From Acidimicrobiia bacterium (GTDB lineage: Bacteria; Actinomycetota; Acidimicrobiia; Spongiisociales; UBA11373), in contig JBBDMM010000018.1 in assembly GCA_040878325.1 (NCBI GenBank), positions 1 to 64,000 on the forward strand: a DNA stretch of 64,000 nt, written 5' to 3'. The notes beneath the pieces are model-generated. The model searched no databases, had not been told where the DNA came from, and saw nothing but the letters and a program-made list of their open reading frames with translations. The position numbers and the translations under genes were made by a program. Below, piece by piece: positions 33,375 through 36,110 of the stretch. Position 1 is the stretch's first letter. Each line of letters starts with the position of its first letter.

Positions 33375-33396
33375 ACTATACGTCACCCGACTGACA
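33375..33396 (-). promoter_or_regulatory. PafBC/RecA-NDp-like promoter of the RecB-family nuclease
   Basis: Minus strand TGTCAG-N10-TATAGT, 8 nt before ATG. Confidence 0.75.
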
Positions 33397-34579
33397 CAGA
33401 TGTAGTTCGGAGCTGCTTGCGGGGTCCGATGTCGCCTTCCAGGAGGCTGAAGACGAGCGACCCGACCGTCACCCAAACGGCGGCGATGAGGAACATCGAC
33501 GAGTAGCCGAACCAGGTCACCAGGGCCCCGAACATCGGACCGCCGATGAGGGCCCCCATGTCGAACAGGCCGGTGAAGATCGCCGACGCGGACCCCCGGT
33601 CGGTGGAGGCAGCCCGGGTGAACGCCAGCGAGTACAGGATTGGGAACGCATAGGCGTGCCCCGCTCCGCAGAACGCTCCGGCCAGCAGAATCGATCCGCC
33701 GTCGCTGGCCGTCGCCAGCAGGACGAAACCGGTGGCGAAGACCAACATCGCCGGGTACAGCACTCGCTTGGGGCCGATCTTGTCCGGCAGCCATCCACCG
33801 ACGAGCCGCAACGACATCGCGGTGCCGGCATAGGCAGCGAAGAAGCCGGCGACGGTCCCGATCCCCGTCTCATCCACGAACGTGCGCAGGAAGGTGAAGT
33901 AGGCGGTCAACGACAGGGCGAATACCAGGGTGAGCCACCACAGCGGGCGGAGGTTGGGCTGCTTCAGGGGGCGCAAGAAGGACACCGCCCCGTCCTTGCC
34001 CATGGGAACGCACGATTCGGGAATCCGGGTGGAGAGCGCCAGTCCGATCACGCTGAGGCCGAGGGAAGTCAGGAAGAGGCCGTCGAAGTCCCAACGATCG
34101 AGCACGAACTCGCCGAGCACTCCGCCCAGCGCGATCGGTAGTAGCCCTGACACTCCGAAAAGGGCGAGGCCCTGGGTCCGCTTCCTTTCGGGAACCAGGT
34201 CGGCGGCGATCGTGTGGATGGCAGTGAACGCCAGCGCCACCCCGAAGCCATGGATGATCCGGATGGTGTAGAGCCACGGTCCGAGCGACGTCACCGTGAG
34301 GTAGAGGCCGAGGACGCAGACATTCACCGCGCCGCCGAGCAACAGCACCGGCCGCCGGCCGCGCCGGTCGAGTTCCCGGCCGAGGAGGGGGCGGGCCGCC
34401 AGTGCGCTGAGCGCCGTCGCCGCGACCACCAACCCGATCTCGACCTTGCTCGCCCCCACCCCCTCGAGGAACCGGGGGAAGTGGACGAACAGAAAGAAGG
34501 CGAGGCCCGACACGAGGCTTACCAGCCACGCGGCCACGAAGTGGGGGGTGAGGAGGCGGTCCATCGCGGCGCGGGACAT
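33383..34579 (-). CDS. MFS transporter
   Basis: About 12 TM; G..LDRRGRR motif A, D.VP..KRTQG, G.LPDKIG; start 34579 or 34564. Confidence 0.92.
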   Translation of the reverse strand: MSRAAMDRLLTPHFVAAWLVSLVSGLAFFLFVHFPRFLEGVGASKVEIGLVVAATALSALAARPLLGRELDRRGRRPVLLLGGAVNVCVLGLYLTVTSLGPWLYTIRIIHGFGVALAFTAIHTIAADLVPERKRTQGLALFGVSGLLPIALGGVLGEFVLDRWDFDGLFLTSLGLSVIGLALSTRIPESCVPMGKDGAVSFLRPLKQPNLRPLWWLTLVFALSLTAYFTFLRTFVDETGIGTVAGFFAAYAGTAMSLRLVGGWLPDKIGPKRVLYPAMLVFATGFVLLATASDGGSILLAGAFCGAGHAYAFPILYSLAFTRAASTDRGSASAIFTGLFDMGALIGGPMFGALVTWFGYSSMFLIAAVWVTVGSLVFSLLEGDIGPRKQLRTTSVSVG

Positions 34580-34608
34580 TAGAACTGCCGCACGCCACCG
34601 GAATCCCG

Positions 34609-34683
34609 CGCGAAAACTCGGGTAGGCACGCGAAAACGAGATAGCAGTTTCGGTTGCCCGCGTCGTGGGCAAGGTCGTATGGT
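34609..34683 (+). promoter_or_regulatory. Promoter of candidate ncRNA-1 with upstream CGCGAAAA direct repeat
   Basis: CGCGAAAA at 34609 and 34629, ATAGC 34641, TTGCCC 34654, 18 bp, TATGGT 34678. Confidence 0.7.
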
Positions 34684-34689
34684 GCCCCC

Positions 34690-34959
34690 AGTTCTTCCCG
34701 AGGATCCGAAAGGAAACACGGGAGGCGGCCCCGGGGACCACCCCGCAAGGGGTCGCCGGAGAGGGTCTTCGGGCTCACTTCGGCGCCACGGGGCCACGGC
34801 CCACCGCTGGGCTTCGGTCCAGCAGGAGGGTGCCGGGCGGTGGCAACACCGGTCGGTTCCCCCTGGGGAGCAGCCCGCAAGGGTTTGCTCAACGGGGGGA
34901 CATGGAGCCCCGAGAGGGCTGCGGCTTCGGCCAAAGCTTTCTCGGGGTTCCACCTTTTT
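34690..34959 (+). ncRNA. Candidate structured ncRNA-1 (~270 nt), family unrecognised
   Basis: Seven stems capped by GNRA or C(UUCG)G, many G-U pairs on the + strand, promoter upstream, 18-bp hairpin plus TTTTT at the 3' end. Confidence 0.8.
34903..34959 (+). terminator. 3' hairpin / intrinsic terminator of ncRNA-1
   Basis: TGGAGCCCCGAGAGGGCT pairs with AGCTTTCTCGGGGTTCCA, then CCTTTTT. Confidence 0.75.
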
Positions 34960-34961
34960 GG

Positions 34962-35022
34962 AGTCTCCAGTCTCCAGTCTCTCCAGTCTCCAGATTCCAG
35001 TCTCCAGTGACTGGAGACTGGA
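34962..35022. repeat. Heptamer repeat (AGTCTCC)n with inverse, separating the two ncRNA units
   Basis: Seen directly. Confidence 0.9.
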
Positions 35023-35028
35023 ATTGCC

Positions 35029-35102
35029 CGCGAAAACTCCGGCTGAGACGCGAAATCCATATAGCGTTCTGGCTTGCGCTCGGTGGGGGTGGCACGTACT
35101 GT
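35029..35102 (+). promoter_or_regulatory. Promoter of candidate ncRNA-2, paralogous to 34609-34683
   Basis: CGCGAAAA 35029, CGCGAAAT 35049, ATAGC 35061, TTGCGC 35074, 17 bp, TACTGT 35097. Confidence 0.7.
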
Positions 35103-35109
35103 CCCACTT

Positions 35110-35346
35110 GTCCAAGCAGCGATGCGGGGATGCCAAGAGCCGGTAACGGCAGGCGGCGGCTTCCGACCTAGCTCCTTCGGGAGGGTCGCATCGGCCGAAA
35201 GGTACGGTGCGGTCGCCGGGCCGGCTTTGACACCGAACTTCGGTTCGAGGTCAGGGACAGGAGCGATTCGCAAGGAGCGCTTCGATCGGAACAACCCCGA
35301 GAGGGTGGAGGCTTCGGCCAAGACTCCCTCGGGGTTTTCCGCGTTC
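35110..35346 (+). ncRNA. Candidate structured ncRNA-2 (~240 nt), family unrecognised
   Basis: Six stems capped by GNRA or C(UUCG)G; 3' hairpin homologous to that of ncRNA-1. Confidence 0.75.
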
Positions 35347-35492
35347 TGGGGGCGAACTCCATCGAATCTGCGCCGTAGCAATCGGTCGATGCCGCCGGGG
35401 CGATCATCCCGGGAGGCTTCTCTATGCGCTCAGTCTGACATTCCGGCCCGCCGGCCCGTCACCAGGCCCCTGCCCGCGCCTACTCTTGGCAC

Positions 35493-36110
35493 ATGTCCTA
35501 CCCCGAAAAGTTTCTGACCGAGGGCGAGTCCGTAGTCCGGGAGTTCCGCCCGCATTGGCGACTGCTCTTCATCCCATTCGCGTGGACGCTGCTGTTCGCC
35601 GCGCTGATCTTCCTCACCTGGCGTTACCCGCCCGACAACAGCACCTTCGACTGGGCCGTGACCGGAATCGTTCTCCTGGCATTCCTGAAGTTGGGCCTCT
35701 ACCCCTTCATTGCCTGGTGGTTCACCCACTACATAGTGACCAACGAGCGCATCATCCGGCGCAGCGGGATCCTCTCCCGCGCCGGCACGGAGATCCCGCT
35801 TGAGAACATCAACCACATGTCGTTCTCGCAGTCGATCCTCGAGCGGATTCTGCGCTCCGGCGACCTGCTGATCGAGTCGGCCGGCGAGAACGCCCAGTCG
35901 AACTTCAACGACATCCCCCAGCCTGAGGCGTTCCAGAGCCTCGTCTACCGCCTGCGCGAACTGCGGGCGAAGAGCCTGGGGAGGGACGGCATCGAGGAGA
36001 CCGACACGGTGGCCCAGTTGGAGCGATTTGGCGCACTCCTCAAGGAGGGCCTGATCACCCAGGACGAGTACGACCGCCAGAAGGCAAAACTCCTCCGCGA
36101 CCAGACCTAA
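35493..36110 (+). CDS. Membrane protein with bacterial PH (bPH_2) domain and C-terminal SHOCT
   Basis: GE.V...RPHW, two TM, Y.VTNERII.R.G, G.IT.DEY..QKA.LL. Confidence 0.88.
   Translation: MSYPEKFLTEGESVVREFRPHWRLLFIPFAWTLLFAALIFLTWRYPPDNSTFDWAVTGIVLLAFLKLGLYPFIAWWFTHYIVTNERIIRRSGILSRAGTEIPLENINHMSFSQSILERILRSGDLLIESAGENAQSNFNDIPQPEAFQSLVYRLRELRAKSLGRDGIEETDTVAQLERFGALLKEGLITQDEYDRQKAKLLRDQT

Follow-up and report, generated by a model that had tools for sequence, protein, structure and literature searches.

Within the window, a 64,000-nucleotide stretch of DNA from an Acidimicrobiia bacterium that was analysed as a whole, positions 35110-35346 of the plus strand are best read as an independent, stable, structured small RNA gene, here called RNA-2, that is one of two sisters, belongs to an uncatalogued family and may act in trans by binding protein; we put the probability of this combined reading at roughly 0.6. 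That RNA-2 is an independent gene for a structured non-coding RNA is, taken by itself, almost certain. The family is of interest for its strong covariation, its presence at 1-7 copies in the majority of genomes of one order, its abundance in environmental RNA and the lack of any Rfam match. Acidimicrobiia are common in soils, sediments, ice, and fresh and sea water, few of them have been cultured, and to our knowledge almost nothing is known of their RNA biology. A full-text search of the literature on non-coding or structured RNA in Acidimicrobiia or Acidimicrobiales, with subscription journals and bioRxiv supplements outside its scope, found no description.

Fold and expression of RNA-2

The predicted transcript runs from a primary start at about 35110 to 35346, with a possible mature 5′ end at 35130-35133, giving an RNA of about 215-240 bases. 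All of the stems named in the original prediction, which had been made from the sequence alone, were found in place and recur in the consensus fold of 10 homologues. These comprise a hairpin GCCG-GUAA-CGGC (35138-35151); a three-way junction domain (35152-35222), whose closing helix GGCGGCU/GGUCGCC (35155-35161 with 35211-35217) encloses a UUCG-capped arm, GACC..CUCC-UUCG-GGAG-GGUC (35165-35187), and a GAAA-capped arm, GCAUCGGCC-GAAA-GGUACGGUGC (35188-35210); a UUCG-capped hairpin with an AC/AG internal loop, CUUUGAC..CGAAC-UUCG-GUUCG..GUCAGGG (35225-35256); a GCAA-capped hairpin, GGAGCGAUUC-GCAA-GGAGCGCUUC (35260-35283); and a long 3′ hairpin. To this list we add P1, a small 5′ hairpin (35114-35127), and a predicted closing helix that would join GGAUGC (35128-35133) to GCGUUC (35341-35346); all of these elements lie on the plus strand.

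As a single sequence, RNA-2 folds to -116.9 kcal/mol, compared with -100.7 +/- 4.65 kcal/mol for 200 dinucleotide shuffles (z = -3.48), none of which is as stable, and it thereby passes the shuffle comparison proposed alongside the original prediction. Comparative evidence comes from alignment A1, which consists of 10 sequences of 243-250 nt: RNA-2 and homologues with a conserved body from 9 other genomes of the same family, found by BLAST in 40 relatives (our genome tallies include the unpublished G039, and the BLAST tally also includes G028; no specific point depends on either). The consensus fold of A1 has 81 predicted pairs, 22 of which change on both sides in a compensatory manner; standard pairs fill 96.0% of the 807 pair cells, compared with 89.4% in shuffles, none of 500 shuffles attains any of five measures of pairing, and slid partners pair in 38-51% of cases. 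Both-side changes are found in 4/5 pairs of P1, 3/5 pairs of the GUAA-capped hairpin, 6/12 pairs of the UUCG-capped hairpin and 5/9 pairs of the GCAA-capped hairpin, while the junction domain (alignment helices 4-8) is 92-100% paired, with most of its pairs invariant and three changed on both sides. Homologues also exchange tetraloops together with an adjustment of the stem, as in the replacement of CUCC-UUCG-GGAG by CUCCC-GCAA-GGGAG. The closing helix of RNA-2 is tentative, because none of its pairs changes on both sides in the 10-sequence alignment; furthermore, across 87 units the tail pairs with the 5′ 70 nt about as well as shuffled tails do (-21.5 vs -21.1 kcal/mol), and for this reason we do not claim the helix for the family as a whole. 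Codon periodicity is absent from the RNA-2 homologues, in which the counts of variable columns per codon phase are 39/44/40 and length differences are not multiples of three. The fold, the compensatory changes and the absence of codon phase together identify 35110-35346 as structured RNA rather than coding sequence.

The extent of this pairing bears on an alternative, namely that RNA-2 is a base-pairing sRNA in which the unpaired CCAAGA (35133-35138), GACAGGAG (35255-35262) or CGAUCGGAACAA (35283-35294) would pair with mRNAs, with the 3′ hairpin as a terminator or stabiliser. Sister genes with a shared regulator site fit that class, as Qrr, PrrF, OmrA/B and the csRNAs are base-pairing sRNAs of this arrangement, and several strands of the junctions are conserved across the 10 homologues. 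The Hfq family was not found in the 98.9% complete genome, yet actinobacterial sRNAs work without Hfq. However, the 81 predicted pairs take up about two thirds of the molecule (162 of ~245 nt), its six capped stems end in GNRA or UUCG tetraloops rather than in accessible C- or U-rich loops, the element most conserved across the family is the paired 3′ hairpin and no single-stranded stretch, and the bodies of the two sisters are wholly different, such that we consider base pairing with mRNAs unlikely. Since every one of the six capped loops listed in the original prediction is GNRA or UUCG, there is likewise no obvious route to pairing between RNA-1 and RNA-2.

Relatives of RNA-2 are abundant in RNA libraries from the environment. 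Small parts of the stretch were present in ten runs from four studies, and four of these runs were compared, all as assembled contigs. Two metatranscriptome runs of one study cover 35130-35295 at a word depth of 364 and 35133-35270 at a word depth of 81, parts of this RNA-2 stretch are also covered by a run of a second study, and metatranscriptome contigs of relatives span 35130-35346; the contigs of the first two runs match the window at 90-99% and hence derive from relatives, and assembled contigs of relatives cannot show strand, level or true ends. Positions 35368-35700, which reach into the downstream gene, are uncovered in all four runs, and such uncovered contig stretches (34576-34619 and 35368-35700) are no proof of silence. 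In run X1, which is possibly DNA, the gene upstream of the pair, RNA-1 and RNA-2 appear as separate low-depth contigs. In two runs of one study the letters before 35130 and 35133, which we take to be Illumina adapter, directly abut these positions just 3′ of P1; this would mean that many short cDNAs end there, a hint that the 5′ end of RNA-2 lies just past the first hairpin, where the 5′ strand of the predicted closing helix begins.

Promoter architecture and the sister gene

Upstream of RNA-2, on the plus strand, lie two phased boxes, CGCGAAAAC (35029-35037) and CGCGAAAUC (35049-35057), 20 bp apart from start to start, followed by a core promoter with -35 TTGCGC (35074-35079), a 17-nt spacer and -10 TACTGT (35097-35102). 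Strict scans for the sigma-70 consensus and for terminators flagged neither a promoter nor a terminator for RNA-2, so our promoter call is based on conservation and not on the E. coli consensus. The elements TTGAC and TAnnnT are conserved in 10/10 close homologues in the alignment. In addition, a pattern search of loci collected 88 distinct promoter-to-hairpin units from 72 loci, in which the boxes are 20 bp apart in 74 and 21 bp apart in 14, the -35 follows the end of box 2 after 16 nt in 86, and the -35/-10 spacer is always 17 or 18 nt; these spacings are far tighter than the search pattern permitted. The original prediction of a separate RNA-2 start near 35110 is thus supported by the -10 element and by a promoter layout kept in 88 units. 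As predicted for the source organism, transcription would start near 35110 and end at or just past the 3′ hairpin.

Genome-wide, the double box (CGCGAAA type) occurs twice in 2.21 Mb, at RNA-1 and RNA-2 only; a relaxed scan added one poor match, and a control scan likewise gave one. The double boxes are probably the site of a regulator. The centres of the two phased boxes lie ~57 and ~77 bp before the predicted start, and we propose that a dedicated activator would bind both boxes and switch the sister genes on jointly.

The sister gene, RNA-1 (34609-34959, plus strand; RNA at ~34690-34959), has boxes at 34609-34617 and 34629-34637, a -35 TTGCCC at 34654-34659 and a -10 TATGGT at 34678-34683. 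Both units share one build, in which boxes of sequence CGCGAAA(A/U)C 20 bp apart are followed 16 nt on by the -35, a 17-18 nt spacer, the -10 and a hairpin-rich body. RNA-1 is itself strongly folded (z = -7.64; its alignment holds 8 homologues), and R1, a covariance model built from A1, matches it at 34812-34956 with 40 bits (E 4.9e-8). Alignment of the two bodies gave no signal, with a local score of z = -0.08 and 163/300 shuffles scoring as high. The original prediction had held that the bodies do not align and that the two RNAs are nonetheless sisters, and both points are upheld, the second by the common promoter build, the same 3′ hairpin and the 40-bit R1 match. Its further proposal of a two-member cassette needs revision, since the pair is one locus of a family that spans the order, has 1-7 copies in each genome and varies in body length from ~160 to 400 nt. 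The shared promoter, the 3′ module and the R1 match support common descent of the RNA-1 and RNA-2 units, and the split between their body types is old, because both types occur in several families.

Between the sisters lies a spacer (34960-35024) built as an array of the 7-nt word TCTCCAG that ends in an inverted copy. When the source genome was searched by BLAST for further copies of the RNA, this spacer alone recurred, at about 58 additional sites. It lies outside both RNAs, because relatives carry other DNA there: in two genomes of the same genus a cupredoxin-type copper-binding gene stands between RNA-1 and RNA-2 on the opposite strand (L029:515-1018, minus strand, with matching stretches in L011 and L010). 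A third genome has repeats of roughly 250 bp in this gap, and in two genomes RNA-1 and RNA-2 are 8 kb apart.

Family range, the 3′ module and gene neighbours

In the source genome, R1 finds RNA-2 at 35103-35348 with 265 bits. With a cut-off of E up to 0.001, it matches 121/151 genomes of the same order of Acidimicrobiia; in a sample of the class, matches were obtained in 35/37 genomes inside the order and in 1/114 outside it (30 bits). Genomes hold one to seven copies, mostly 2-3, with some tandem rows of 5-7, and unit length ranges from ~160 to 400 nt. Tandem rows of 5-7 members spaced 300-550 bp apart were seen in family f7 (G142:C20:444034-445804; G125:C9:168680-170327; also G101, G113 and G107).

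Family f10 at first appeared to lack the RNA, as the filtered R1 search matches 1/18 of its genomes. This absence is partly an artefact of the speed filter: with filters off, two of five f10 loci beside a PD-(D/E)XK nuclease gene match (30.2 and 19.2 bits) and the other three give nothing. One diverged f10 unit of ~400 nt (L207:869-1340, minus strand), missed by the filtered search, has the double box and a simplified 3′ module; it stands back to back with the PD-(D/E)XK gene and opposite a convergent ORF, in a genome where no bPH_2 gene was found.

A further pattern scan gave at least 134 matches, of which at least 114 have record titles that name Acidimicrobiia, Acidimicrobiaceae, Acidimicrobiales, Actinomycetota, Actinomycetes or Actinobacteria; among the matches listed, at least 16 titles name another phylum or order and at least four name no taxon. 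The 16 off-taxon titles among the matches listed name Acidobacteriota, Deltaproteobacteria, Elusimicrobia or Kiloniellales (L076, L084, L089, L093, L103, L114, L129, L132, L141, L169, L174, L176, L181, L184, L186 and L193), and complete promoter-bearing units are present in at least five of these loci (L103, L129, L141, L176 and L184). We suspect that these records are mislabelled or mixed bins; horizontal transfer is another conceivable source. Judged from sequence matches, the family is uncatalogued and, as far as searched, confined to one order of Acidimicrobiia.

Copy numbers of 1 to 7 and the presence of tandem arrays would also be expected if the units were copies of a mobile or selfish MITE-like repeat and not genes. 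We find this hardly credible, as the locus keeps the same neighbours throughout the order, only two copies are present here, neither terminal inverted repeats nor target duplications were seen, every copy has a promoter, and compensatory changes maintain the fold.

What the genes of the family share, beyond their promoter, is a 3′ module, located in RNA-2 at 35288-35346 on the plus strand and made up of the long hairpin (35294-35335, UUCG loop at 35313-35316) and a conserved tail, UUUUCCGCGUUC (35335-35346; RNA-1 counterpart at 34948-34959). The 42-nt hairpin is 83% identical to its RNA-1 copy at 34908-34949. In alignment A3, which holds 84 units with the 3′ module after exclusion of two odd units from 86, the hairpin is 98.2% paired and 8 of its 16 pairs change on both sides, a result reached by none of 500 shuffles. 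These both-side changes fall at the top and base of the hairpin, and its core, CCCGAG/CUCGGG, is invariant in all 84 units, an invariance partly forced by the collecting pattern, which forces neither the G.U pair nor the upper stem. The G.U pair is retained in 83/84 units, and a conserved A opposite C interrupts the stem. The tail has the consensus UUUCUCGCGUC (A3 columns 51-62) and is conserved beyond any U run; the run after the RNA-2 hairpin is only UUUU. To judge from the invariant core, the kept G.U pair and the covariation, the hairpin is under selection for its sequence. Two side observations concern this module: the reverse complement of the tail UUUCUCGCGUC resembles the promoter box CGCGAAAAC, and a unit at L196:2150-2620 (minus strand) has a simplified 3′ hairpin, CCCCAAGG..CCUUGGGG, in which both sides of the usually invariant core are changed and the tail UUUCUCGCGUC is kept.

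A GC-rich hairpin followed by U-rich letters could be a mere lineage-specific terminator motif, in which case the sisters would be linked only through a reused promoter/terminator cassette. Terminators of conserved sequence do exist: Gardner et al. (2011, PMC3152330) describe TRIT, a Mycobacterium terminator motif with 147 copies in M. tuberculosis, found at the ends of coding genes around the stop codon, whose sequence conservation suggested a binding factor to its authors. The module resembles TRIT, as presented there, in being a transcript-end hairpin conserved in sequence as well as in shape. In contrast to TRIT, which according to that source is restricted to Mycobacterium and has 147 gene-end copies, the module has two copies here, at RNA genes only: the R1 search of the source genome found it at RNA-1 and RNA-2, together with an antisense echo, and at no coding-gene end. 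A general terminator of the TRIT type was rejected on this result. Termination, moreover, needs neither the G.U pair kept in 83/84 units, nor the conserved A/C mismatch, nor a tail that extends past the U run, and we regard the terminator-motif alternative as distinctly unlikely; that the 3′ hairpin does more than terminate transcription is rather likely.

In the GC-rich window, the pair is flanked upstream by an MFS transporter gene (33383-34579, minus strand) and downstream by a gene for a membrane protein with bPH_2 and SHOCT domains (35493-36110, plus strand; Pfam match), which is not part of RNA-2. The latter has its own -10, TACTCT (35481-35486, plus strand), 6 nt before the ATG and has no Shine-Dalgarno sequence, the arrangement of a leaderless mRNA. 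A TAnnnT ends 5-8 nt before the bPH_2 start codon, as read by eye, in 26 of 30 homologous loci (drawn from L028-L057 and L194-L203; the exceptions are L037, L049, L198 and L201), and these 26 span several orders, some without the RNA. A survey of neighbours, in which Pfam was run on 75 of 338 ORFs chosen by third-position GC in 30 loci, placed a bPH_2 gene beside the RNA, co-oriented and just downstream, in 20/30 loci from several families and a PD-(D/E)XK nuclease gene next to it in 11/30. The bPH_2 protein is present in 5/5 genomes of other orders, with no boxes or 3′ module upstream, while among five f10 genomes it was found in 0/5 by protein query and in 1/5 by Pfam model; the PD-(D/E)XK gene is present in 5/5 f10 genomes. 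The PD-(D/E)XK neighbour is similar to the nuclease domain found in helicase-nucleases of the AdnAB type and only weakly similar to Cas4, and no link of this neighbour to RNA was seen.

These neighbours bear on the possibility that RNA-2 is a cis leader or attenuator of the bPH_2-SHOCT gene, with the 3′ hairpin as a conditional terminator under the control of a ligand or protein bound to the body. In the window this gene begins 147 nt past the hairpin, a co-oriented bPH_2 gene adjoins the RNA in the same 20/30 loci, and short, abundant terminated products would account for the read cover equally well. Against this, the bPH_2 gene has its own -10 and lacks a Shine-Dalgarno sequence in 26/30 loci, including in orders without the RNA, and, to reason from leaderless mRNAs, an internal AUG without a Shine-Dalgarno sequence would be poorly translated on a read-through transcript. 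RNA-1 has the same build and no coding gene after it, a diverged member of the family is found in a genome where the bPH_2 gene was not, and conservation is the reverse of that of a riboswitch, with the terminator-like hairpin invariant and the body variable. Neither RNA-1 nor the f10 member is followed by a co-oriented gene. We therefore rejected a riboswitch or cis leader as the identity of RNA-2, a role that is very unlikely, and the possibility raised with the original prediction that RNA-2 is the 5′ UTR of the gene at 35493 is contradicted by the gene's own leaderless-type -10.

The co-oriented placement in 20/30 loci could still mean that RNA-2, as an independent gene, is functionally tied to bPH_2-SHOCT. 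Joint loss of the RNA and the bPH_2 gene had seemed a sign of such a tie; this argument is weakened, as genus g36 has the RNA alone and other orders have bPH_2 alone. The RNA persists without the bPH_2 gene, because g36, of family f10, keeps the RNA and a bPH_2 homologue was not found there.

Proposed mode of action and known systems

We propose that RNA-2 would act in trans as a protein-binding scaffold or decoy. Its 5′ hairpin may be trimmed, upon which the new 5′ end at ~35130 could pair with the 3′ tail to form a closed, nuclease-resistant, multi-helix body. The invariant 3′ hairpin, with its G.U pair and A/C mismatch, would serve as a common handle, and the variable body would be the copy-specific part. 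As the mode of action of the family, protein binding is possible, at somewhat less than even odds. The combination of a promoter site unique to the RNA genes and a hairpin of invariant sequence implies two protein partners, one that regulates the genes and one that binds the RNA, and DNA and RNA baits could capture both directly.

Known RNAs and their partners provide few candidates in the source genome (66.7% GC, 98.9% complete). Rfam 15 gave 0 matches over the whole window at gathering thresholds, and a search of 34400-35600 with E up to 10 gave nine weak matches, none on the RNA-2 body, the best being ctRNA_pGA1 at the RNA-1 3′ end with 23.5 bits against a threshold of 45; the cmscan check suggested at the outset thus agrees with a family foreign to Rfam. 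A CsrB/RsmZ-type sponge of CsrA was rejected, as no CsrA gene was found in the 98.9% complete genome and the RNA has no GGA-loop motifs, its six capped loops being GNRA or UUCG. Y RNA or YrlA with Ro60 was also rejected: the Ro60 (TROVE) family was not found in the genome by a search whose control detects it in Deinococcus, and there is no Rfam match. For 6S RNA, model RF00013 has no match in the source genome and matches 0/151 genomes of the order, in a search of limited sensitivity whose control detects only 4-5 of 14 known genomes. Identity with 6S was rejected on the missing RF00013 match and on the fold, which is a multi-branch junction and not a rod with a central bubble. 6S as a replacement in the seemingly RNA-poor f10 offers no contrast, having been found in 0/151 genomes. 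With the searches for Ro60, CsrA and Hfq in the genome and for 6S in the order all negative, a protein partner would be new.

RNA-2 does resemble 6S and the actinobacterial Ms1, which binds the RNA polymerase core, in being a stable and abundant structured RNA, 200-300 nt long, with a promoter of its own. In the accessible part of the Ms1 paper (PMC9130861), Ms1 is flanked by genes for a HAD-IB hydrolase and an oxidoreductase and Acidimicrobiia are not mentioned. Set against that account, identity with Ms1 was rejected, as the neighbours here are the MFS transporter, the PD-(D/E)XK nuclease and the bPH_2-SHOCT protein and not a HAD-IB hydrolase or an oxidoreductase. With 6S undetected in the order and that part of the Ms1 paper silent on Acidimicrobiia, the niche would be open. 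The family could be the RNA subunit of an order-wide ribonucleoprotein, for instance a stand-in for 6S/Ms1 that binds RNA polymerase or another core machine, a specific proposal that we hold to be quite unlikely. If it were true, the protein would be held through the 3′ hairpin, the exchangeable bodies would set how active each copy is, and the dedicated activator would turn the whole set on under one condition.

Among large structured RNAs, the raiA motif, OLE, ROOL and GOLLD are similar to the RNA-2 family in their many tetraloop-capped helices, strong covariation and restriction to a lineage. The gene for OLE lies next to that of an OLE-binding membrane protein, and RNA-2 likewise adjoins a membrane protein gene. 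The RNA-2 family differs from all four in having no Rfam match and in being smaller, multi-copy and modular, with constant ends and a variable body, and at least one of its lineages can do without the membrane-protein neighbour.

In their regulation, the genes of the family are closer to sister small-RNA genes under one regulator, such as RsmY/RsmZ with its GacA upstream site, Qrr1-5, and the csRNAs with CiaR. Like these, they are paralogous RNA genes of variable copy number with the same upstream site restricted to them, and the finding of a double box at two positions only, in a layout kept in 88 units, would place them among regulator-dedicated sister RNAs, a class defined by how its members work and not by homology. 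Unlike RsmY/RsmZ, Qrr and the csRNAs, with which they have no sequence or structure homology, the RNA-2 genes combine completely different bodies with an invariant 3′ hairpin. This modular build, in which a body of 160-400 nt changes freely between fixed ends, is unusual among bacterial small RNAs and would be informative under any mode of action.
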